Shown here one piece after another: positions 3,687 through 57,802 of a DNA stretch of 64,000 nucleotides. Location of the stretch: the NCBI GenBank assembly GCA_017608345.1, contig JAFCGA010000001.1, forward strand, positions 33,766-97,765. Reading direction: 5' to 3'. Both the position numbers and the translations under genes were made by a program. A model generated the notes under the pieces. That model did no database searches. It was not told the origin of the DNA and worked only from the letters and a program-made list of their open reading frames with translations. The stretch comes from Candidatus Pacearchaeota archaeon. GTDB taxonomy: Archaea > Nanobdellota > Nanobdellia > UBA10117 > JAFCGA01. Positions within the stretch are counted from its first letter, which is position 1. Each line of letters begins with the position of its first letter.

Positions 3687-4880
3687 ATGGATGATCAATC
3701 TTTCGGTACGGGATTCGAAACTATAGCTGACCCTGCAGATGATATTTTTTCTTCGCCCCCACCACAACAACAGCCACAACCGCAGCCAGTTTATCAAGCA
3801 GCTCCTATGCAGGCAGCTCCAATATCTGTTCGGGAACCTGGTAATTCTGAGTTAGAAGAAATACTTGCTAAAAAGAAAGCTAGAATTAAGGTAATCGGAG
3901 CAGGTGGCGCAGGTAATCACACTATTTCGAGAATATCTGAAGTGGGCGTGGTCGGCGCTGAAACTGTAGCAATTAACACTGACGCTCAGGATCTTTTGAG
4001 TAATGCTGCAGATAAGAAAATGCTAATCGGCAAAGAACTTACCGCAGGTCTTGGTGCAGGTTCAAATCCTCAAGTCGGTAAGGAAGCTGCTAAAGAATCT
4101 GAAAATGATATTAAAAATGTATTAAAAGAAGCACACATGGTTTTCCTAACTTGTGGGCTTGGAGGCGGAACCGGAACAGGTGCGCTTCCAGTTATCGCAG
4201 CAGTAGCTAAAAAACTAGGGATTCTGACTGTTGCCGTAGTTACACTTCCATTCACAATGGAAGGTCAGCTGAGACACGAAAACGCAATGGTCGGCCTTGA
4301 GGAACTCGAAGGACTTGTCGATACGTTAATAGTTATACCAAATGATAAGCTAATTGAATTAGCTCCAGATCTTCCCCTACATACTGCATTCAAAGTTGCG
4401 GATGAGATTCTAACCAATGCAGTTAAAGGAATTGCAGAGCTGATCACAAAGCCAGGTCTTATTAATTTAGATTTTGCAGATATTAGAGCAGTTATGTCTT
4501 CTGGCGGAATTGCAATGATTGGTGTCGGAGAGAGCGATACTGAGAATCGTGCAATTGAGTGCGTTGAGAAAGCTATTTCTAACCCGTTGCTGGATATTGA
4601 TATTTCTGGAGCAAATGGCGCGTTGATTAATGTTGCTGGCGGTCCGTCTATGACTTTAGAGGAAGCTCGACAAGTAGTAGAGACTGTGACAGGTAAGCTA
4701 GACGATTCAGCTAAAATTATCTGGGGAGCTCAGGTGCAGCCGGACTTGCAGAATACTATCCGAGTCATGCTAGTAATTGTGGGTGTTAAATCACCGCAAA
4801 TCTTCGGACCTAAGCGGACGTTCTCTCAAAAGAGAAAAACAGAACTAGCTGACGATTTAGGGATTAAATTCGTTGACTGA
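3687..4880 (+). CDS. ftsZ: cell division GTPase FtsZ with a Q/P-rich N-terminal extension
   Basis: [10 protein letters not shown] and the tubulin signature [13 protein letters not shown]. The C-terminal domain is typical of FtsZ. Confidence 0.95.
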
Positions 4881-4900
4881 CCAACCCTATTTCTTTGCCA

Positions 4901-5062
4901 TTTTCTTTCTTTTGCAAAACCAGAGCGGAATGAAATTCCGCTTGGCCAACCGGAACTAGTTCCGGTCTGGAGAAAGAATTAGGCGTCCAAAGAAAGAAAA
5001 GCATATTTCTCCGCGACTGCGTCGCGTCAATAATAATCGCTCACTCATCAGTTCGCTCTAGC
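4901..5062. repeat. free-standing intron-like structured element between convergent genes
   Basis: Y-tract 4901-4914 (TTTTCTTTCTTTTG) pairs with R-tract 4988-5001 (CAAAGAAAGAAAAG) around the twin hairpin 4920-4970. That hairpin is about 47/50 identical to the reverse complement of 57276-57325, which lies inside the tRNA-Ala(GGC) D-loop insert. 5036-5062 (CGCTCACTCATCAGTTCGCTC) matches the sense strand of the 26903-26925 element. Confidence 0.65.
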
Positions 5063-5095
5063 GAATCGGGGCGATTCGCGCTTAGAGTGGTTGAG

Positions 5096-5531: not shown

Positions 5532-6614
5532 TCAGAAGGGACGTATCTCTCTTCTCAGCTCAAATAAACTTGGATTTCTCCCAAGTTTTTCATTCAAAGC
5601 AGATTTAAAGACCATAATTTCCTGTTCTCGCAACTTGGCTCGGCCGTCAGCTTCTATTAGAACTGAGGGATAGGAATAACTGCGATTCTGTCGGGAGATC
5701 TCAAAGATTGTCGAGGCAACTTGCTCGGGGTCGCCGATGAAGTCTAGGCGCATAGGTCGGTCGTATTCAACTGCTTTGATGTACATAGCTCTCACAGCTT
5801 CGCTCCACTTGCCGATCTCGCGCATGACTGGTAGTTCGGCTCGCGAGGAGGAGTACTCGAAGTCTTCTGTCCGCCAGCCAGCTTGCAAGAAGTAGAAAAG
5901 AAAGAGCGTATCTGTTGTGCGATCCAATACTGGCAAGAGCTCACTGAGTTCTTTTTTTATCTCCTCTGGAAGGGCAGCTTCAGAAAATCTCTGCTTTAGC
6001 AAGCTGCAGTACTTTGTTCCTTTGCAGTCTTCAATTGCGCCGATCAGCAGGATATTGTTCTTTGTGCAATATTCGTAGAGCTCAATATATTGGTTAATAA
6101 CTTTCTCGTAGAGCGGCTGAACTTTAGAATCCTTGTCAGGCACGCTAGAAGGATGAAGTACAATCGAGCCGTCGGCGACTAGCACATCTGGCTGCAATTC
6201 TTTAGCAGCTTTTAGCTGAGTTGCTAATTCCATTTCAACGCGTCGTAAGCTAGCGAGTGTAGAAAACTCTGCGGAATTGAATTCAGATCCAATTATAATT
6301 GGTTCTGGCTGAGGTCGGCGGGAAGGGAAATAATCTGTCTTGACTAATTTATTTTGTTTATAGTGAAAGCAAGCTGCTACAGCTCTTCGAAGAATTAGAC
6401 CCATTCCGTGATATTCTTTAGCTAGAAATCCGCCATCTACTCCGCAGATCTTATTGTTGAGTTCGATTGGCTTGATTTGCTTTGCTAAGCTTGGAAAAAG
6501 TTTTAGAGAATCAACTTTTTTGAGTAGTTTTGCTAGCTCGGAGCGGTTTTTAGCTAAGTCATTGATGTGTTGAGCTATCTGATTAATGGTGTCTTCCATC
6601 GAATATTGGGTCAA
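5532..6614 (-). CDS. nurA: NurA-domain 5'-3' nuclease
   Basis: KICGVDGGFLAKE (N-terminal catalytic Asp motif), VLVADGSIVLHPS, LDRTTDTLFLFYFLQAGWRTEDF and SYPSVLIEADGRAKL follow the NurA motif order. Confidence 0.7.
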   Translation of the reverse strand: MTQYSMEDTINQIAQHINDLAKNRSELAKLLKKVDSLKLFPSLAKQIKPIELNNKICGVDGGFLAKEYHGMGLILRRAVAACFHYKQNKLVKTDYFPSRRPQPEPIIIGSEFNSAEFSTLASLRRVEMELATQLKAAKELQPDVLVADGSIVLHPSSVPDKDSKVQPLYEKVINQYIELYEYCTKNNILLIGAIEDCKGTKYCSLLKQRFSEAALPEEIKKELSELLPVLDRTTDTLFLFYFLQAGWRTEDFEYSSSRAELPVMREIGKWSEAVRAMYIKAVEYDRPMRLDFIGDPEQVASTIFEISRQNRSYSYPSVLIEADGRAKLREQEIMVFKSALNEKLGRNPSLFELRREIRPF

Positions 6615-26701: not shown

Positions 26702-26870
26702 TGGACCGACCCGGATTCGAACCGGGGATCCTCGCGATGTAAACGCGATGTCATAACCAGATTGTCTTACTGCACGATTCATATTTTCGAGCGAAGCGAG
26801 CAAGACGCCTTTCTTTTAGCACCTTAGCTTTTCTTTCGCGAAAGAAAAGGCAGTTCTAGACCATCGGTCC
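26702..26870 (-). tRNA. tRNA-Val(UAC) with an insert of about 92 nt in the D-loop
   Basis: The minus strand folds as GGACCGA TG GTC TAGAA[insert]TCTGGTTAT GAC A TCGCG TTTACAT CGCGA GGATC CCCGG TTCGAAT CCGGG TCGGTCC A. Confidence 0.75.
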
Positions 26871-29781: not shown

Positions 29782-30828
29782 TTAATAGCCTGCTTTCTTT
29801 AATAAATTCTTCATCTTCTGACTTGAAAAGTGCTTTCTAACTGGAGCAAGAATATCATTTAGCTCTCTAGCCACTGCTTTCTTGAGATCCATCGGATGCA
29901 GCTGCTTATCTGCAAAGGCTTGCTCTAGCTGTCGATAATTTCCAAACTCAATATTCCCACCGAATTTTTCAGGCCGCTTAATTATGAATTTCTTGCTAGC
30001 GTCTTTTAGGCGAGGCATTATGACTAATTTTATTAGTTCTAGCAAGCCGTTTTCTTCTACTTTTCCAGTGACGCAGAAAGCAGAGTTTATTTTCTTGCTG
30101 ATATCTTTTTCAGAGTCTAACAGACTGATTTTAGTAGAGGAGCCTGCGGAAGCGCTCATCTTTCCACCCATTTTTCCACCAGATAGACTCGGAAGCAGCG
30201 GACCAAAAACACAAGTTGGCTTCTTGCGACCAACTGCTGGAAAGACCTCTCTCCCTAGCATGTAGATACCGCGCTGATCTACTCCTCCGAAAGCGACATC
30301 TGCGTTAAGAGCAGTGATATCTTCAATTTGCATTAGCGGATATATGAATCCGCCTAGCTTTGGCGCATCTCCGAAACGAACAACCTCCGAAGCTGCCCGT
30401 TTAACTCGAGCAAAAGTTACTTCTCCAGCAAATCTTAGAACATCGAGCTGATAGTCTTTTTCTAATTGAAAGTCTGAGCCCTTAACAAATTTGATATTCT
30501 TTGGATCAACGCCTAAAGATTTTATCGCACTTTTCGCTAGCTCTTCATAAACTTTGGCTCTGAATGCTAGCTGCTCCCAGCTGGATTTTTTATCATCTAA
30601 GTATGCATGAATATCTGCAACCAAGAAGGTGAATTTGAAGCCAGCTCGCAAAAAGTCAGCGATTTTTAGCAAAGGAACTAGATGGCCGATATGCAGTAAA
30701 CCTGTCGGAGCATAGCCAACATAAGCAGTAGGATTCTTCTTCTTTTTTAGAAGCTCTTTTAGCTCTTTCTCTTCAACGATTTCCTGAGTGTTTCTTTTTA
30801 TTAGCCTAAATTTTTCTTCTGTATTCAT
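29782..30828 (-). CDS. tyrS: tyrosyl-tRNA synthetase
   Basis: Aligns closely by eye with archaeal TyrRS: LIKRNTQEIVEEKEL, GYAPTGLLHIGH, KMSAS, IKRPEKFGG and QLHPMDLKKAV. AGGTGA lies 4 nt upstream of the ATG at 30828. Confidence 0.95.
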   Translation of the reverse strand: MNTEEKFRLIKRNTQEIVEEKELKELLKKKKNPTAYVGYAPTGLLHIGHLVPLLKIADFLRAGFKFTFLVADIHAYLDDKKSSWEQLAFRAKVYEELAKSAIKSLGVDPKNIKFVKGSDFQLEKDYQLDVLRFAGEVTFARVKRAASEVVRFGDAPKLGGFIYPLMQIEDITALNADVAFGGVDQRGIYMLGREVFPAVGRKKPTCVFGPLLPSLSGGKMGGKMSASAGSSTKISLLDSEKDISKKINSAFCVTGKVEENGLLELIKLVIMPRLKDASKKFIIKRPEKFGGNIEFGNYRQLEQAFADKQLHPMDLKKAVARELNDILAPVRKHFSSQKMKNLLKKAGY

Positions 30829-30869
30829 AATTTCACCTCGCAATACCGTCTATTAAATCTTGCGGCAAG

Positions 30870-31136: not shown

Positions 31137-31547
31137 TTATCTCACCTCAGTCCCGCGGGCCGGAGTTGCACCAGCAGCCTCTCGGTCTACGGCCGAGCGC
31201 TCTTCTAACTGCTCCAACCGTTTCTTATTTCCGAGCGAAGCGAGCAAGACGCCTTTCTTTTGGCATCTTAGCTTTTCTTTCGCGAAAGAAAAGGCAGATT
31301 GAGCTACCGCGGGAAGAATTAATTCACCAGTATGAGTTAGAGAAATTAGCTTACTATCGCCGAAGCTGATTAGTCTCTTATTTCTGAGCTGGCGAAGATT
31401 ATGCCAGCCAGTTGATTTAGGTAAGTTTAGAGAAGCGACAAATTGTGATGCAGTTAGTAAGTCATTATCTGCGATTGCGAATAAAAGCTTACGCTGAAGA
31501 TCAGGTATATTATTAGAAATTAATTCGCAGAGGATACGGATGATCAC
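31137..31547 (-). CDS. winged-helix (HTH) protein ORF whose C-terminal 58 codons run through tRNA-Tyr
   Basis: The first 78 aa (…LTASQFVASLNLPKSTGWHNLRQLRNKRLISFGDSKLISLTHTGEL) look like a wHTH. There is no in-frame stop before 31137. Confidence 0.4.
   Translation of the reverse strand: MIIRILCELISNNIPDLQRKLLFAIADNDLLTASQFVASLNLPKSTGWHNLRQLRNKRLISFGDSKLISLTHTGELILPAVAQSAFSFAKEKLRCQKKGVLLASLGNKKRLEQLEERSAVDREAAGATPARGTEVR
31151..31313 (-). tRNA. tRNA-Tyr(GUA) with an insert of about 87 nt in the D-loop
   Basis: The minus strand folds as CCCGCGG TA GCTC AATC[insert]GAGC G CTCGG CCGTAGA CCGAG AGGCT GCTGG TGCAACT CCGGC CCGCGGG A. The archaeal Tyr identity pair C1:G72 is present. Position 33 reads C rather than U. 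Confidence 0.75.
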
Positions 31548-50520: not shown

Positions 50521-51030
50521 ATGGTAATCAAGAAACCAACTAAAGCTCCGTCTGTTTCAGCTATCAAAAAGCAGCTAACTGAAGCTAAAAAGCAGGCTGA
50601 GGAATACAAAGAGACTCTGCAGAGATTGCAAGCTGAATTTGATAATTATAGAAAAAGAATTGAGGCTGAAAAGCCAAGTCTTATTGCCTCCGCTAACAAA
50701 GAATTAGTAACCAAGCTGTTAGAGGTTTTGGATAGCTTTGATAGAGCGCTATCAGCAAAGCTATTAGAGGATCCTGGACTCAAATTAATACATAAGCAGA
50801 TTTATACAACTCTCGAAAGCGAGGGCTTATCGCTAGTACAAGCTATCGGAAATAAATTCGATCCGCAGCTACACGAAGCTCTTTCTTGTAAGGAATCAGA
50901 TTGTGAGGGAGATATTATCCTCGAAGAAGTCCGGAAGGGCTATTTATTCAAGAGCAAGCCAATACGGCCAGCTCAAGTCATAATCTCAAAATCGAAAGAG
51001 AATAAAGAGGAACAAAAAAATGGTAAATAA
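50521..51030 (+). CDS. grpE: nucleotide exchange factor GrpE
   Basis: [14 protein letters not shown] and FDPQLHEA motifs, located upstream of dnaK. Confidence 0.85.
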
Positions 51031-52903
51031 GATTATTGGTATAGATTTAGGTACAACTTTTTCAGCAGTCGCGGTTATGGAGGGCGGAAAGCAAACCATA
51101 ATTCCAAACGCAGAGGGCAGTCGAACAACGCCTTCAGTGGTCGCTTTTAAGGACGGCGAGCTATTAGTCGGCGAAGTTGCTAAGCGGCAAGCAGTTGCTA
51201 ATCCAAAGAACACGGTTAGAAGTATCAAGCGAATAATGGGCTCAAAAGAGAAGATAACTCTCGAAGGAAAGGATTATTCGCCTGAGCAGATATCCGCTAT
51301 GATTCTACAGAAGCTTAAGCGAGATGCAGAAGCTTATCTGGGAACGAAAATAACCGACGCAGTTATTACAGTTCCAGCCTACTTCGAGGACGCTCAACGA
51401 CAGGCAACAAAAGATGCGGGTAAGATTGCTGGCTTAGAAGTCAAGAGAATCGTAAACGAACCTACTGCTGCATCGCTAGCTTATGGATTGACTAAAGAAA
51501 AGGATCAGACCGTTATGGTTTTTGATCTAGGTGGTGGTACTTTTGATGTCTCAATTTTAGAGCTGGGAGATGGTGTATTTGAAGTTAAGGCAACTTCAGG
51601 TAATAACCATCTTGGTGGAGATGATTTTGATGAAGCTATTATTGATTGGCTAGCAAGTGAGTTCAAAGAAAAGCACGGAATTGATCTTCGAGAAGATCCA
51701 TCAGCTAAGCAGCGGTTAAAGGATGCCGCGGAAAAAGCTAAGATCGAAGTCTCGTCAGCTCAGAAGACAAATATTAATCTTCCATATGTTGCGCAAGGAA
51801 AAGAAGGTCCGCTGCATATTGATATTGATCTAACGCGGGCGAAATTCAATGAGCTAACTTCAGATCTTGTAGAAAAAGTTGTGAAACCAGTAAAGCAAGC
51901 TCTAAAAGACTCCAAGCTAGACAAGGTTGATAAAGTTCTTCTCGTAGGCGGATCTACTAGAATCCCAACTATACAAAATAAAGTCAAGGAACTAACAGGT
52001 CTGGAGCCAGACAGATCAATTAATCCAGACGAAGCTGTAGCTCTTGGAGCGGCTATTCAAGCAGGAATACTGGGCGGAGATGTTAAAGATGTCTTACTCT
52101 TGGACGTAACTCCATTAAGCTTAGGCATAGAGACCTTAGGCGGAGTTTGCACTAAATTAATTGCCAGAAATACAACTATCCCGACCAAGAAATCGCAAGT
52201 ATTCTCAACAGCTGCAGACAATCAGCCACAAGTAGAGATTAATGTCTTGCAAGGAGAGCGGGATATGGCTGCAGGAAATAAGAGCCTAGGCAAGTTCAGT
52301 TTAGCTGGAATACCACCGGCACCGCGAGGAATACCGCAGATCGAAGTAACCTTCGACATCGACGCTAACGGAATTGTAAATGTATCTGCGATGGACAAAG
52401 CTACTAACAAAAAGCAGTCCATAACCGTTACAGGCAGCACTCGGCTAAAAGAAGATGAAGTTGAGAAAATGGTTAAGGAAGCTGAGCAGCACGCAGAGGA
52501 AGATAAGAAGCTTAAGGAAGCTGTTGAAACAAAGAATTCTGCTGAGACCTTGATATTTACAACTGAAAAAATGCTCAAGGAGCACAGTGACAAAGTTGAT
52601 AAAAAGACTAAAGAGAAGATTGAGAAAGCTATTGGCGAGCTAAAAGAGACTTTGAAGGAAGGCAAGACAGAAGACATTAAGAAAAAGCTAGAAGAAGTCG
52701 ACAAGGTAGCTCAGGAAATCGGCGCTGAAATGTATAAAAAAGTCGCTGAGGAGATGGCTAAGAAGCAAGCTGCTGCGTCTAAGACTGAAGAAAACGGTAA
52801 GAAAGATGAAAAGGAAACAGTAGTTGATGCTGAGGTCGAAGACACGTCTGAGCAAGCTCCTCGTGCCTCAAGCGAAGCTGAAGGAGAAAAGAAAGAGAAA
52901 TAG
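51020..52903 (+). CDS. dnaK: chaperone DnaK (Hsp70)
   Basis: [26 protein letters not shown] and LVGGSTRIP. Confidence 0.97.
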
Positions 52904-52908
52904 CGTTA

Positions 52909-53292
52909 TTATTTATATTTTCCTTGAATTCGTTTAATGTTAGCAATAATCTCGTCAGCAGGGTATTGTATTGCAGCAGAGCTCATGTCAAAGCTATGCG
53001 CTATTATTCTTGGTGTTCGGGATCTTAGGATACTAATTGATTCGTAAAAATCATTTTTTACTGGAGTAATATAACCATAATTTCCTCGTACTATTTCACT
53101 AAGTGTGTCTGCACCATTACCTGCAAATGCAATAAAACTAACTGCTGGCGCTAAATAAAAATGCGTGTGATCTGCACCTATTAATTTGCCAAATAAAAGC
53201 CCAGTATCTCTATTACTCAATAGAACAGTTTTTCCTTCTAAGCAACCTAAAGTATTTTTCATTTCAATTACTCGCGAGTAGTAGTTGCTCAA
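52909..53292 (-). CDS. hypothetical protein (127 aa)
   Basis: ORF in the track, 5 nt downstream of the Bro-N-like ORF on the same strand. Confidence 0.45.
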   Translation of the reverse strand: MSNYYSRVIEMKNTLGCLEGKTVLLSNRDTGLLFGKLIGADHTHFYLAPAVSFIAFAGNGADTLSEIVRGNYGYITPVKNDFYESISILRSRTPRIIAHSFDMSSAAIQYPADEIIANIKRIQGKYK

Positions 53293-53297
53293 TAAAT

Positions 53298-53663
53298 TTA
53301 TAAAACTTTCGCCATTTTATCCGCAATCCGCTTCTTCCGCTCAGCTCGCTTTGGAGGAATGGATTGGATGACTCTGAACATTGATTCTGTATCTGCGCAG
53401 TCTGTTAATAGAAGTTTACCGTCTTCTGCTAGCAGTTTCAATTGTACGATAAAATCGTACGGTTCAAATCCTTCTTCGTCTAAACTATTCTTTAGATCCG
53501 ACCAATATCGCTTAGGTATTGAACTTATGTCTAAAGCGTTTACAATATCAACTACTGAGAAAAACCACTTACCTTCATGCCGGATTCGTCGGATATTCTT
53601 TCCGTGAAAAGTGACTAGCGCATTATTTGAAGCTATTTTATTATCCGGAGTAATATTAGCAAT
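53298..53663 (-). pseudogene. Bro-N-domain ORF with no usable start codon (in-frame TAG 12 codons after a possible TTG)
   Basis: My minus-strand translation is IANITPDNKIASNNALVTFHGKNIRRIRHEGKWFFSVVDIVNALDISSIPKRYWSDLKNSLDEEGFEPYDFIVQLKLLAEDGKLLLTDCADTESMFRVIQSIPPKRAERKKRIADKMAKVL*. The first ATG/GTG/TTG in frame leaves only 46 aa, which is why it is absent from the track. Confidence 0.45.
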
Positions 53664-53731
53664 CTAGATTTTATAATGATTTTGACGATCCAAGAGCAAA
53701 CCTCTAAAAGCCTTCCCTATAACTTATATTT

Positions 53732-54808
53732 ATGACCAAAGACTACTACGAAACGCTAGGAGTAAGCAAATCATCATCTAAAGACGAGCTCAAGAAAGCT
53801 TACAAGAAGCTAGCTAAGAAGTACCATCCAGATATATCTGGAGACAAGTCAACCGAAGAAAAATTCAAGGAAATCTCAGAAGCTTACGCTGTTCTCAGCG
53901 ACGGCGAAAAGCGTAAGATGTATGACCAATTTGGCCACGCTGATTTTAATCAGCAGTTCTCGCAGGAGGATATTTTCAGAAACGTTAATTTCCAAGATAT
54001 ATTTAGTGAAATTTTCGGTAGCAATGGCGGCTTCGGCGGCAGCATTTTTGGTGATCTTTTTGGAGCTGGCAGAGGAAGAGAACCGCAACATGGAGAGCAT
54101 TTAAGATATGATTTAGAAGTCGATTTTGAGGAAGCTGCTTTCGGTGCTACAAAAGAAGTTAGAGTAAGCAAGTTAGATAGCTGCGAAGAATGCGACGGAT
54201 CTGGCTCTTCAGATGGAAAAACTAAAACTTGCTCTACTTGCAACGGAACTGGACAATTCCGTCAGGTAAGGCAGACTATGTTCGGAACAATGGTTCAGCA
54301 AGGTATTTGCCCCGACTGCAGGGGACAGCGGGAGAGCATACTTAATCCCTGTAAGAACTGCCGCGGAACTGGACGAGTAGCAAAATCAAAAACTATCAAT
54401 CTAAAAGTACCGCCCGGAGTGGATAATGGATTTAGACTGCGAGTAAAAGGCGAGGGGGAAGCTGGCGTAAGGGGACGAGCATCCGGAGATTTATTTGTAA
54501 TAATTCACGTCCGTCCGCACAATTTCTTCAAGCGGGACGATGAAGATATTATTTTTAAATTGCCAGTTAGCTTTCCGAAACTAGCGCTAGGAGCTAAGAT
54601 CGAAGTACCAACATTGCATGGAAAAGTTAAGCTCAAAATTCCAGCTGGAACTCAGACTGGAACAGTATTTAGAGTTAGGGGTAAGGGCGTGCCTCGGTTT
54701 AGAGGCTTCGGTAACGGTGACCAATATGTTAAGGTGTTTACTAAGGTTCCTGAGAAGCTAGATCGAAAGGCGAAGAAGCTTTTAGAGGAGCTGGATAAGC
54801 GGCTCTAG
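53732..54808 (+). CDS. dnaJ: co-chaperone DnaJ (type I)
   Basis: J domain (DYYETLGV...KKYHPD), a G/F region and four CxxCxGxG zinc-finger repeats. Confidence 0.95.
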   Translation: MTKDYYETLGVSKSSSKDELKKAYKKLAKKYHPDISGDKSTEEKFKEISEAYAVLSDGEKRKMYDQFGHADFNQQFSQEDIFRNVNFQDIFSEIFGSNGGFGGSIFGDLFGAGRGREPQHGEHLRYDLEVDFEEAAFGATKEVRVSKLDSCEECDGSGSSDGKTKTCSTCNGTGQFRQVRQTMFGTMVQQGICPDCRGQRESILNPCKNCRGTGRVAKSKTINLKVPPGVDNGFRLRVKGEGEAGVRGRASGDLFVIIHVRPHNFFKRDDEDIIFKLPVSFPKLALGAKIEVPTLHGKVKLKIPAGTQTGTVFRVRGKGVPRFRGFGNGDQYVKVFTKVPEKLDRKAKKLLEELDKRL

Positions 54809-54846: not shown

Positions 54847-55069
54847 GGGGCTATGGTGTAGCTAGAGCTTAAGTATTGCTTTAGTTCCTACAATGGCTAG
54901 CATCGCAGGTTTGGGACCTGCAGACCCCAGTTCAAAGCGGAGCCTTTTCTTTTGCTAAAAGAAAAGTTCCCGCCGCTCTCCAAAAGAAAAGCGTATTGCT
55001 CGCTTCGCTCGAGAATATTGCCTTTGGCAAGTTAGGAGATGTCGGCACTTGAAAATCTGGGTAGCCCCA
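54847..55069 (+). tRNA. tRNA-Pro(UGG) with a D-loop insert (about 31 nt) and a T-loop insert (about 119 nt)
   Basis: Folds as GGGGCTA TG GTGT AGC[54863-54893]TGGCTA GCAT C GCAGG TTTGGGA CCTGC AGAC CCCAG TTCAAA[54937-55055]T CTGGG TAGCCCC A. It is 73 nt after removing the inserts. Confidence 0.75.
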
Positions 55070-55074
55070 TTGAT

Positions 55075-55213
55075 GCGCCCGTGGTCTAGTGGTACGCGCT
55101 AAAAATCCGTGCACTAAATGACTCAAGCTTGCCAAGCTTGCAACCCGAGTTCAAATTCGGACTGGTTCGAATTACTGCGAGAACTTGTTCGATCGGAAAT
55201 CTCGGCGGGCGCA
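55075..55213 (+). tRNA. tRNA-Gly(GCC) with a D-loop insert (about 24 nt) and a T-loop insert (about 44 nt)
   Basis: Folds as GCGCCCG TG GTCT AGTGGTA[55095-55118]TGAC T CAAGC TTGCCAA GCTTG CAAC CCGAG TTCAAAT[insert]CTCGG CGGGCGC A. It is 71 nt after removing the inserts and starts 5 nt after tRNA-Pro. Confidence 0.75.
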
Positions 55214-55767: not shown

Positions 55768-55974
55768 GGGCCGTTAGCTCAGAGCCTTTTTCTTTCTTTC
55801 CCAAAGAAAGAAAAACCCTCGGGAAAAAGAAAGAACGGGAACGCGAGCAATCTGGTCATATTCCGTCAGGAATATTCCTGGACGGAGTACTGGAAAGAGC
55901 ACTTGGCTCTTAACCAAGGTGTCGAGGGTTCAAAGCTGCCAAATATTAAGCAGTAGAAAATCCCTTACGGCCCG
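55768..55974 (+). tRNA. tRNA-Lys(CUU) with a D-loop insert (about 105 nt) and a T-loop insert (26 nt)
   Basis: Folds as GGGCCGT TA GCTC AG[about 55783-55887]..CTGGAAA GAGC A CTTGG CTCTTAA CCAAG GTGTC GAGGG TTCAAA[55935-55960]T CCCTT ACGGCCC G. TTATAAAT lies 25-32 nt upstream. Confidence 0.8.
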
Positions 55975-56015
55975 CTATCTAAATTCTTTTATACTCTTTA
56001 TATCCGAAAGATAAT

Positions 56016-57193: not shown

Positions 57194-57241
57194 TGCTATT
57201 CGATAAGGTTATAAAACTAAACGCTTTTTAAATTAACTAGT

Positions 57242-57587
57242 GGGCCGGTAGTTCAGCCAGCGGATCCCTTGCTCTCCAGACCGGAACAAGTTCCGGTTGG
57301 CCACGCGGAATTTCATTCCGCTTGGTGCAAAGAGAAAGGTCTACGCATCACCCCAAAGAGAAGCGTATTCCTTCGCTCCTTCGGAGCTCAAAAATAAAGA
57401 GATTTGCCTGAAACGGTAGAACGCTACATTGGCAGAGCCTTTTTCTCTTTCCAGAAAGAGAAAAACGTTCGCGAAAAAGAGAAAGCGAACATGGGTTTCA
57501 GACTTGTAGAGGCCCCGAGTTCAAATAGCCTTTCTTTCCTGAATGAAAGAACGAATTTCAGAGGCTAGGAAAATCTCGGCCGGTCCA
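57242..57587 (+). tRNA. tRNA-Ala(GGC), 346 nt, with three inserts: D-loop (about 153 nt), canonical 37/38 (69 nt) and T-loop (about 48 nt)
   Basis: Folds as GGGCCGG TA GTTC AGCC..[insert]..GGTA GAAC G CTACA TTGGCA[57435-57503]T TGTAG AGGCC CCGAG TTCAAA[about 57526-57573]T CTCGG CCGGTCC A. G3:U70 is present, and the gene is 76 nt after removing the inserts. Confidence 0.75.
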
Positions 57588-57683
57588 CTAATAACTTTTT
57601 TAAAGTGCTTAATCTTAGAATTAATTATGCAGAGATTATGCAAAAAAAGGTTTTTGCTAGATCTCAGCACTCACTACGTTCGT

Positions 57684-57769
57684 GCCGAGATAGCTCAGCT
57701 GGTAGAGCGCCAGTTTAATAGGCGAATCTCATAAGCTGGAGGTCGGGAGTTCGAGCCTCCCTCTCGGCA
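57684..57769 (+). tRNA. tRNA-Met/Ile2(CAU), elongator type, with a 13-nt insert at the 31/32 boundary
   Basis: Folds as GCCGAGA TA GCTC AGCTGGTA GAGC G CCAGT[TTAATAGGCGAAT]CTCATAA GCTGG AGGTC GGGAG TTCGAGC CTCCC TCTCGGC A. Confidence 0.8.
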
Positions 57770-57770
57770 C

Positions 57771-57776
57771 TTTTTT
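57771..57776 (+). terminator. oligo-T tract after tRNA-Met
   Basis: TTTTTT lies 2 nt after the discriminator base. Archaeal Pol terminates at T-runs. Confidence 0.4.
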
Positions 57777-57802
57777 ATATCCTTAACAATTATAGCAGCT
57801 CG

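Follow-up and report, generated by a model that had tools for sequence, protein, structure and literature searches.

Exon-intron structure of the tRNA-Ala(GGC) gene

The DNA studied here is a window of 64 kb (the whole stretch that was analysed, with a G+C content of 39.6%; all coordinates are positions in it), which contains a gene for tRNA-Ala with the anticodon GGC that is interrupted in its D-, anticodon and T-loops. The gene covers 346 nt on the forward strand and consists of four collinear exons and three introns (Table 1), the inserts summing to 272 of 346 nt (78.6%), in agreement with the share of about 78% proposed in an initial annotation of this DNA that was made without database searches. 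That annotation had also placed the four exon strings at 57242-57258, 57415-57434, 57504-57525 and 57574-57587, where all of them are found, and had sized the inserts at about 153, 69 and 48 nt. The sizes of the anticodon-loop and T-loop inserts stand, but the D-loop insert comes to 155 nt when its ends follow the bulge-helix-bulge (BHB) geometry of the splice motif, by which exon 2 starts at 57414 with C17a. The hairpins described in the D-loop insert, namely two paired hairpins (57281-57296 and 57305-57321) and a CTCCTTCGGAG hairpin (57376-57386), were all found.

Joining of the exons gives a spliced tRNA of 74 nt, GGGCCGGTAGTTCAGCCCGGTAGAACGCTACATTGGCATTGTAGAGGCCCCGAGTTCAAATCTCGGCCGGTCCA, in which the D-loop boundary is set by the geometry of the splice motif. 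In this product all four stems are intact, G3:U70 is present as the identity pair for alanine, position 73 is A and the T-loop has the standard form TTCAAAT; ARAGORN calls the joined exons tRNA-Ala(GGC) for nearly any D-loop boundary chosen. CCA is absent from the gene sequence at the 3' end of exon 4. In its unspliced form the gene was missed by both ARAGORN and Rfam (at the gathering threshold) when they were run on the window, and a permissive Rfam scan (E<=10) of 57200-57800 gave no match on the gene or its introns.

A TATA-like box and an oligo-T run, both read from the sequence, flank the gene (Table 1), and A/T-rich boxes are also present at about the same distance 5' of the genes for tRNA-Ala(CGC), tRNA-Lys, tRNA-Thr and tRNA-Val (copy 1).

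Splice motifs of the three introns

We tested every possible cut pair for two 3-nt bulges flanking a 4-bp central helix (H), together with an outer helix (h) and an inner helix (h'), and placed the cut after the second bulge base, as in the canonical case at 37/38 (cuts are marked by an arrow below). It turned out that intron 2 has a strict hBHBh' motif, in which h is 5 bp (the anticodon stem), H is 4 bp (TTGG/TCAG, including G-U pairs), h' is 5 bp and the bulges are CA↓G and AC↓T. Intron 1 has a relaxed HBh' motif, in which TCAG at positions 12-15 (D-stem/loop) pairs with CTGA at the 3' end of the intron by Watson-Crick pairs only, CC↓A and AA↓C form the bulges, h' is a helix of 7 bp (GCGGATC/GATTTGC) and h is 1 bp; this geometry places the cut between C17 and C17a.

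The motif of intron 3 is degenerate. Its h is the 5-bp T-stem and both bulges read AA↓T, H (TTC/GAA) is made of T54-A, T55-A and C56-G and an A57.G mismatch, and the inner helix TAGCCT/AGGCTA begins at the first intron base, not the second. Since exon 3 ends with AAA and intron 3 with AAAA, four equivalent cut placements lead to the same product, and 59/60 is preferred because the 3' bulge then directly abuts the T-stem. A tRNA-Ala(GGC) with one insert in each loop, as first proposed, is therefore what the canonical product found by ARAGORN and by its cloverleaf, together with BHB-type geometry at all three junctions, bears out.

In dinucleotide shuffles, a BHB score of the grade of intron 1 occurred at about 7e-5 per cut pair, which corresponds to about 0.003 over the approximately 49 D-loop-compatible pairs, and a strict motif of the grade of intron 2 at about 9e-6 per cut pair. 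The exon/intron arrangement with BHB motifs at introns 1 and 2 is not due to chance. When the three BHB motifs and the acceptor stem were imposed jointly on the precursor, the folding energy was -115.4 kcal/mol, compared with -125.6 kcal/mol for the unconstrained optimum.

Interrupted tRNA genes in the same window

All the tRNA genes found in the window (9 of 9) are interrupted, with at least 15 introns in total. Without splicing, Rfam detected three of the nine and ARAGORN only one (57684-57770). The hidden genes were located by searching the intron sequences, and then the gaps between Open Reading Frames (ORFs), and all of them were recognised by ARAGORN once spliced in silico.

A comparison with related tRNA-Ala genes, which the initial annotation had suggested, starts from the tRNA-Ala(CGC) gene of the same window. 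The two mature sequences are identical at 57 of 74 positions, and the genes have in common the D-loop site, with identical H (TCAG/CTGA), and the T-loop site, while tRNA-Ala(CGC) has no intron at 37/38. It was missed by both ARAGORN and Rfam.

The junctions of the nine genes are highly regular. The five T-loop introns share the pattern (T-stem)TTCAAA↓...(N)GAA-AA↓T(T-stem), and the fourth central pair is kept in one of them and lost in the other four. In each of the five D-arm introns that could be resolved, H consists of four Watson-Crick pairs, the 5' bulge reads NN↓A and the 3' bulge AA↓N or AG↓N. Among the other genes, tRNA-Pro and tRNA-Gly lie 5 nt apart and are probably co-transcribed. 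In the D-arm insert of tRNA-Lys, no cut pair yields both a good BHB and a standard D-loop, and the insert may consist of two adjacent introns. The tRNA-Tyr-like gene lies just upstream of a gene for a Tyr/Trp-type tRNA synthetase (29782-30843) and shares part of its sequence with a mechanically called ORF (31137-31547); a pseudogene and a gene with further inserts are both conceivable. For the gene at 57684-57769, ARAGORN offered Ile(AAT) or "Stop(tta)" with a canonical intron, which we dropped for the CAT reading with its perfect CGCC/GGCG helix.

Table 1. Positions of the tRNA-Ala(GGC) gene, the other tRNA genes and the intron copies outside tRNAs in the 64-kb window
Feature	Position	Strand	Description
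tRNA-Ala(GGC) gene	57242-57587	+	346 nt
TATA-like box TTATAAAA	57209-57216	+	-33 to -26; likely archaeal promoter
Exon 1	57242-57258	+	tRNA positions 1-17: acceptor 5' strand, U8 A9, D-stem 5' strand, A14-C17
Intron 1	57259-57413	+	155 nt, D-loop 17/17a
Exon 2	57414-57434	+	positions 17a-37: remaining D-arm, anticodon stem 5' strand, anticodon GGC, A37
Intron 2	57435-57503	+	69 nt, canonical archaeal position 37/38
Exon 3	57504-57525	+	positions 38-59: anticodon stem 3' strand, variable loop, T-stem 5' strand, T-loop TTCAAA
Intron 3	57526-57573	+	48 nt, T-loop 59/60
Exon 4	57574-57587	+	positions 60-73: T60, T-stem 3' strand, acceptor 3' strand with U70, discriminator A73
Oligo-T run	57596-57601	+	9 nt past the gene; likely archaeal terminator
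tRNA-Ala(CGC)	34728-34427	-	302 nt
tRNA-Ala(CGC) D-loop intron	34711-34620	-	92 nt, 17/17a
tRNA-Ala(CGC) T-loop intron	34576-34441	-	136 nt, 59/60
tRNA-Pro(TGG)	54847-55069	+	
tRNA-Pro D-loop intron	54864-54893	+	30 nt
tRNA-Pro T-loop intron	54937-55055	+	119 nt
tRNA-Gly(GCC)	55075-55213	+	
tRNA-Gly D-loop intron	55094-55117	+	24 nt
tRNA-Gly T-loop intron	55156-55199	+	44 nt
tRNA-Lys(CTT)	55768-55975	+	D-arm insert of about 107 nt
tRNA-Lys T-loop intron	55935-55960	+	26 nt
tRNA-Val(TAC)	26870-26702	-	94-nt intron at 15/16
Unit upstream of tRNA-Val	27059-26873	-	degenerate copy of tRNA-Val exon 1 (GGACCGATTGGTC), then 174-nt family member (27046-26873), then the real gene
tRNA-Thr(TGT)	26207-26066	-	68-nt intron at 37/38
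CAT-anticodon tRNA (Met or Ile2)	57684-57769	+	
Intron of CAT-anticodon tRNA	57714-57726	+	13 nt, non-canonical, at 30/31; perfect H CGCC/GGCG
tRNA-Tyr(GTA)-like gene	31313-31151	-	D-loop insert of about 85 nt, ends not fixed by BHB; atypical T-loop TGCAACT; C at position 33
Free-standing family copy (locus 4900)	about 4885-5075	+	between ftsZ (3687-4880) and the NurA gene (5532-6614, -); no tRNA exons

T-loop introns in tRNA-Ala genes of other archaea

To other genomes we applied a search pattern consisting of the intron end GAAAA and the 3' exon TCYCGGCCGGTCCA, which fixed only the last five intron bases and left the 5' junction and the base five from the intron end free. Among 185,579 species genomes it occurred at 31 places, 16 of which are archaeal, and the rest are consistent with chance (about nine expected). 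Of the archaeal places, 15 are tRNA-Ala genes whose insert directly follows T-loop position 59, so that the comparison with related genes extends the T-loop site well beyond the window. Their sources are groundwater Woesearchaeota, unclassified archaea, two contigs labelled Methanosarcinales, and two metagenome-assembled genomes (MAGs), one of Helarchaeota and one of Heimdallarchaeota. For three of them (L045, L049 and L058), excising the T-loop insert alone leaves an intact tRNA-Ala of 72-73 nt.

The fourth central pair, between position 57 and intron base n-5, is standard in 13 of the 15 genes and covaries (A:T in eight, G:C in two and G:U in three), which identifies 59/60 as a true BHB site and intron 3 of tRNA-Ala(GGC) as a weakened version of it. 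The relatives carry further introns in the D-loop (19/20, 20/21 and 21/22), at 26/27, 33/34 and 37/38 and in the variable region. By these positions, the T-loop intron is widely shared and 37/38 is common, while 17/17a is shared with the paralogue in the window only. Since the relatives were picked by a pattern that demands a T-loop intron, they demonstrate the wide use of 59/60, not its frequency.

Multiple introns are also found among these genes, with three in the tRNA-Ala of L054, L056 and L062 and four in that of L057 (CAYMDJ010000032.1) and L040 (CAZIAB010000074.1). The latter two are uncultured archaeon MAGs, in which tRNA-Ala(GGC) has inserts in the D-loop (38 nt), the anticodon loop (49 or 30 nt), the junction of variable region and T-stem (32 nt) and the T-loop (38 nt). 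Seven of the eight central helices have 4 bp, the anticodon-loop intron of L057 having three of four pairs, and the spliced product of 71 nt is called tRNA-Ala by ARAGORN. A full-text literature search for "four introns" returned no case of a four-intron archaeal tRNA; the maximum stated in the papers cited here is three.

A modular family of introns

Ten long inserts were aligned and turned out to follow one modular plan, with a pyrimidine/purine hairpin (CCTTTTCTTT-loop-AAAGAAAAG) at the start and then a purine tract and the segment GCGT-TTGCTCGCTTCGCTCG-AAAATA. Intron 1 of tRNA-Ala(GGC) is the largest member, in which the two paired hairpins enlarge the first hairpin. A shorter member is intron 2, which nhmmer matches to the D-arm intron of tRNA-Lys (E=2e-4) and the D-loop intron of tRNA-Ala(CGC) (E=1.7e-3) and which is also related to the tRNA-Thr intron, while intron 3 has a similar hairpin without a significant match. 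Some copies are nearly identical, such as the D-loop introns of tRNA-Val and the tRNA-Tyr-like gene (96% identity across 72 nt), and the paired-hairpin module of intron 1, which matches 4924-4973 in inverted orientation (96% identity across 50 nt). Family modules are present in shorter introns at D-, anticodon- and T-loop sites as well.

Besides, two copies lie outside tRNAs (27046-26873 on the reverse strand and about 4885-5075 on the forward strand). The first belongs to the unit upstream of tRNA-Val. The only TATA-like box at this locus stands before the degenerate first exon copy, and GTCCAC near the 3' end of the unit can pair with GTGGAC of either exon copy. Taking the first GGACCGAT copy as the real 5' exon, across an intron of 189 nt, gave no sensible BHB and no sensible product, and the unit is probably exon 1 and the D-loop intron duplicated in tandem and since diverged. 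In the second copy, called locus 4900, the paired-hairpin module (4924-4973) is inverted relative to the rest of the element, and the search for BHB ends at this locus gave none that is convincing.

Both copies outside tRNAs, the one upstream of tRNA-Val (the Val copy) and locus 4900, contain parts of intron 1. An unpaired stretch of 14 nt, CCCCAAAGAGAAGC, is identical in the Ala and Val copies; two compensatory double changes leave hairpin 1 with its 6-bp stem and CNAG loop, and hairpin 2 still folds as a hairpin but from an unrelated sequence. Such conservation would be expected if the hairpin-rich core of intron 1 (about 130 nt) were a separate small RNA freed by splicing, perhaps in circular form, and active elsewhere, which would be compatible with a working tRNA. 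C/D box small RNAs (sRNAs) are carried in this way in the euryarchaeal tRNA-Trp intron. We nevertheless consider this unlikely for intron 1, which matches no Rfam family, including those of small nucleolar RNAs and sRNAs, even at E<=10. No C/D or H/ACA boxes are visible, a C box is absent from intron 1, and its sole CUGA, located at the 3' end, belongs to the central helix of the BHB.

Other evidence against a separate RNA comes from the copies themselves. The three copies arrange and orient their modules differently: at locus 4900 the paired hairpins are inverted, and in the Val copy they come after the pyrimidine/purine stem instead of within it. The same modules also build shorter introns at all three kinds of loop. 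No copy was found in genome or metagenome collections: the intron-1 motif CCCCAAAGAGAAGC...CTCCTNCGGAG had 0 matches in the genome scan, and a relaxed form of it had one chance match in the metagenome scan, within a GC-rich coding region. The shuffling of modules and their presence in shorter introns fit a decaying, recombining intron family better than a constrained RNA gene. With no Rfam family, no C/D or H/ACA boxes and repeated modules, we read the many hairpins of intron 1 as part of the architecture of the family, in preference to a separate RNA gene or a unique structure.

It is conceivable, though we hold this only tentatively and think it less likely than not to be true, that the introns are a currently active, non-autonomous family of modular mobile elements, which enters tRNA loops, is rendered harmless by the BHB splicing of the host and may land or persist outside tRNAs. 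If so, the 96% identical copies in different tRNAs, the inverted module at locus 4900 and the duplicated unit at tRNA-Val would be footprints of ongoing recombination or reverse splicing, and the genome would offer a living intermediate toward the split tRNA genes of Nanoarchaeota and a tractable case of tRNA intron spread.

In the genome scan, the shared module GCTCGCTTCGCTCGNRAAT gave mostly chance bacterial matches and, among the matches listed, at least two in DPANN archaea, both apparently intergenic. Three introns of the window (26788-26801, 31232-31245 and 54998-55011) and a D-loop intron of a groundwater Woesearchaeote (L052) carry an exact copy of a motif, GCTCGCTTCGCTCG followed by (N)AAAT(T)A. 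The motif is also present in apparently intergenic DNA of two other DPANN MAGs (L104 and L144; together with L052, these are MAGs of Woesearchaeota and Nanoarchaeota). The motif GCTCGCTTCGCTCG reads as a direct repeat, GCTCGC-TTC-GCTCG.

Functional status of the gene

We consider it very probable that the gene encodes a functional tRNA-Ala(GGC) of a DPANN archaeon, with three protein-spliced BHB introns at 17/17a, 37/38 and 59/60, and that the modular intron family has spread through the D-, anticodon- and T-loops of most tRNA genes in the genome. A precursor of 346 nt would be transcribed from the TATA-type promoter about 30 nt upstream, and each intron would pair with the adjoining exon so that two bulges of 3 nt form at a distance of about 4 bp. 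Both bulges of each motif would then be cleaved by the splicing endonuclease of archaea (EndA), an RtcB-type ligase would join the four exons, and RNase P, 3' trimming and CCA addition would lead to the finished tRNA of 74 nt. For this gene we infer transcription, cleavage, ligation, an order of intron removal and an endonuclease of broad specificity. In the genome as a whole, the family would be a proliferating one that has reached all three kinds of loop.

Several points weigh against a working gene. In intron 1 the outer helix is nearly absent and the D-stem must open for H to form. In intron 3 the central helix has only 3 bp and the A.G mismatch, and the inner helix is shifted by one base. 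Among the scanned ORFs of the window there is no gene for EndA or RtcB. Finally, a scan of the 185,579 species genomes with exon 2 (GGTAGAACGCTACATTGGCA) gave 0 matches, and no orthologue with that exact sequence was found.

A case can also be made for a dead gene, that is, an ancestral tRNA-Ala(GGC) broken by three insertions of a short repeat, the pieces of which are no longer expressed or spliced. The repeat family of the inserts does occur outside tRNA genes, at 27046-26873 and about 4885-5075, the splice motif of intron 3 is imperfect, and standard tRNA finders make no call at 57242-57587. However, the exons have not decayed, and on joining they give perfect stems, G3:U70 and the T-loop TTCAAAT. 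Each insert lies exactly where a BHB-type motif can form, the promoter-like box and the oligo-T run are intact, and the same T-loop site is used in the 15 tRNA-Ala genes of other archaea. Besides, all nine tRNA genes found in the window are interrupted alike, so interruption cannot equal inactivation, as the loss of all of them would be impossible for the cell. We therefore regard a dead gene as very improbable.

Self-splicing introns, or a split or permuted tRNA assembled in trans, are effectively refuted, since inserts of 48-155 nt are too short for group I or II ribozymes, which usually measure at least 200 nt, neither the Rfam gathering threshold nor E<=10 gave a match to any group I or II intron model, and the four exons are collinear, in order and on one strand within 346 nt. 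What could be said for them is that group I introns are described in rRNA genes of Woese- and Pacearchaeota (PMC6125680) and split tRNAs in Nanoarchaeota (PMC4033280).

Comparison with known systems

Archaeal tRNA genes are known to carry up to three introns (PMC8450103, PMC4033280). In Thermoproteales such as Pyrobaculum calidifontis the density of introns is comparable to ours, since 46 genes there contain 71 introns (Sugahara et al. 2007/2008, as reviewed in PMC8450103 and PMC4033280), compared with at least 15 in nine genes here. As in that order, up to three BHB or relaxed BHB introns are found per gene, at canonical and non-canonical positions, and similar introns occur in different tRNAs. 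Unlike Thermoproteales, the host here is a DPANN archaeon with a low G+C content (39.6% in the window) and not a hyperthermophilic crenarchaeon, and its introns are long (up to 155 nt, and 136 nt in the paralogue) and composed of pyrimidine/purine-tract hairpin modules.

The similar introns in different Thermoproteales tRNAs have been attributed to transposition (Fujishima et al. 2010, summarised in PMC4033280), a case resembled here by the near-identical introns of tRNA-Val and the tRNA-Tyr-like gene. The tRNA-Val locus, with a 5' tRNA fragment and intron-like sequence upstream of an intact gene, also resembles the fragment model for tRNA-Thr of Caldiarchaeum (PMC3293823). In contrast to both cases, one family copy (locus 4900) lies outside any tRNA, no recombinase gene stands beside the segment duplicated at tRNA-Val, and this segment measures only 189 nt.

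The nuclear tRNA-Ile(UAU) of Cyanidioschyzon merolae has introns in the D-arm, at 37/38 and in the T-loop, whose stepwise removal was followed by reverse transcription PCR (PMC3728597, PMC9602550). It shares with tRNA-Ala(GGC) the arrangement of one intron per arm, all with BHB-type motifs, and its stepwise removal demonstrates that a precursor of this kind is processable. The host of that gene is a eukaryotic red alga, its D intron lies in the stem and not in the loop, and the two genes have no sequence relationship.

Within the DPANN superphylum, ARMAN-2 has introns at 59/60 with relaxed motifs (PMC3239211). The T-loop site is the same, and the relaxed hBH-type motif of its tRNA-Cys resembles intron 3, while its genes have one or two introns and its endonuclease is of the epsilon2 type with an L2 loop. 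Woese- and Pacearchaeota are reported to have alpha4 endonucleases with an L3 loop (PMC5829648). Kaneta et al. tied the L3-loop endonucleases of DPANN, those of Woese- and Pacearchaeota among them, to more disrupted tRNA genes and predicted undetected ones (PMC5829648).

In the Asgard lineages Atabeyarchaeia and Freyarchaeia, 92-95% of tRNA genes are interrupted and tRNAscan-SE missed introns (PMC11291895). The two sets resemble each other in near-total interruption (9 of 9 here), in many non-canonical positions, in many multi-intron genes and in tools that miss introns (tRNAscan-SE there; ARAGORN and Rfam here). They differ in superphylum and in the modular intron family, which is analysed here and has no counterpart in the text consulted for those lineages.

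Archaeal tRNAs with three introns, introns at 59/60 in DPANN and the transposition of introns have thus all been published, and the three-intron tRNA-Ala(GGC) is a known but rare arrangement carried to another lineage. Notable features are the D-loop intron of 155 nt, a length for which the papers cited here give no range to compare, the intron content of 79%, the interruption of all tRNA genes found in the window, a modular family with near-identical copies and copies outside tRNAs, and the habitual loss of the fourth central pair at T-loop junctions. This has consequences for annotation, as standard tRNA finders saw one to three of nine genes in 64 kb, and DPANN genomes scored as lacking tRNAs may hide them, as Kaneta et al. 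suspected (PMC5829648). Such a dense set of related introns is also useful material for studying the multiplication of tRNA introns in archaea and the origin of split tRNAs. Since four of five T-loop junctions are without the fourth central pair, an endonuclease with relaxed requirements is predicted.

Host and neighbouring genes

Genes in the window include those for aIF5B, Met-, Glu-, Ile/Val- and Tyr/Trp-type tRNA synthetases, aRF1, TFB, L10/P0, NurA, FtsZ, S6e, L1, GrpE, Hsp70 and DnaJ. The aIF5B protein is 59-65% identical to proteins from marine MAGs of Woesearchaeota, Pacearchaeota and Nanoarchaeota, and these identities and the archaeal gene content point to a DPANN archaeon without a close relative in the collections; by its proteins, the host is a Woese-/Pacearchaeota-like DPANN archaeon. 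A gene for a YgjP-like protein adjoins the tRNA locus; in relatives with a 53-60% identical protein, no tRNA genes were found beside that gene.

A cluster of GrpE, Hsp70(DnaK) and DnaJ genes is present at 50521-54808 on the forward strand of this DPANN archaeon. Archaeal chaperone clusters of the GrpE-DnaK-DnaJ type are usually attributed to transfer from bacteria.

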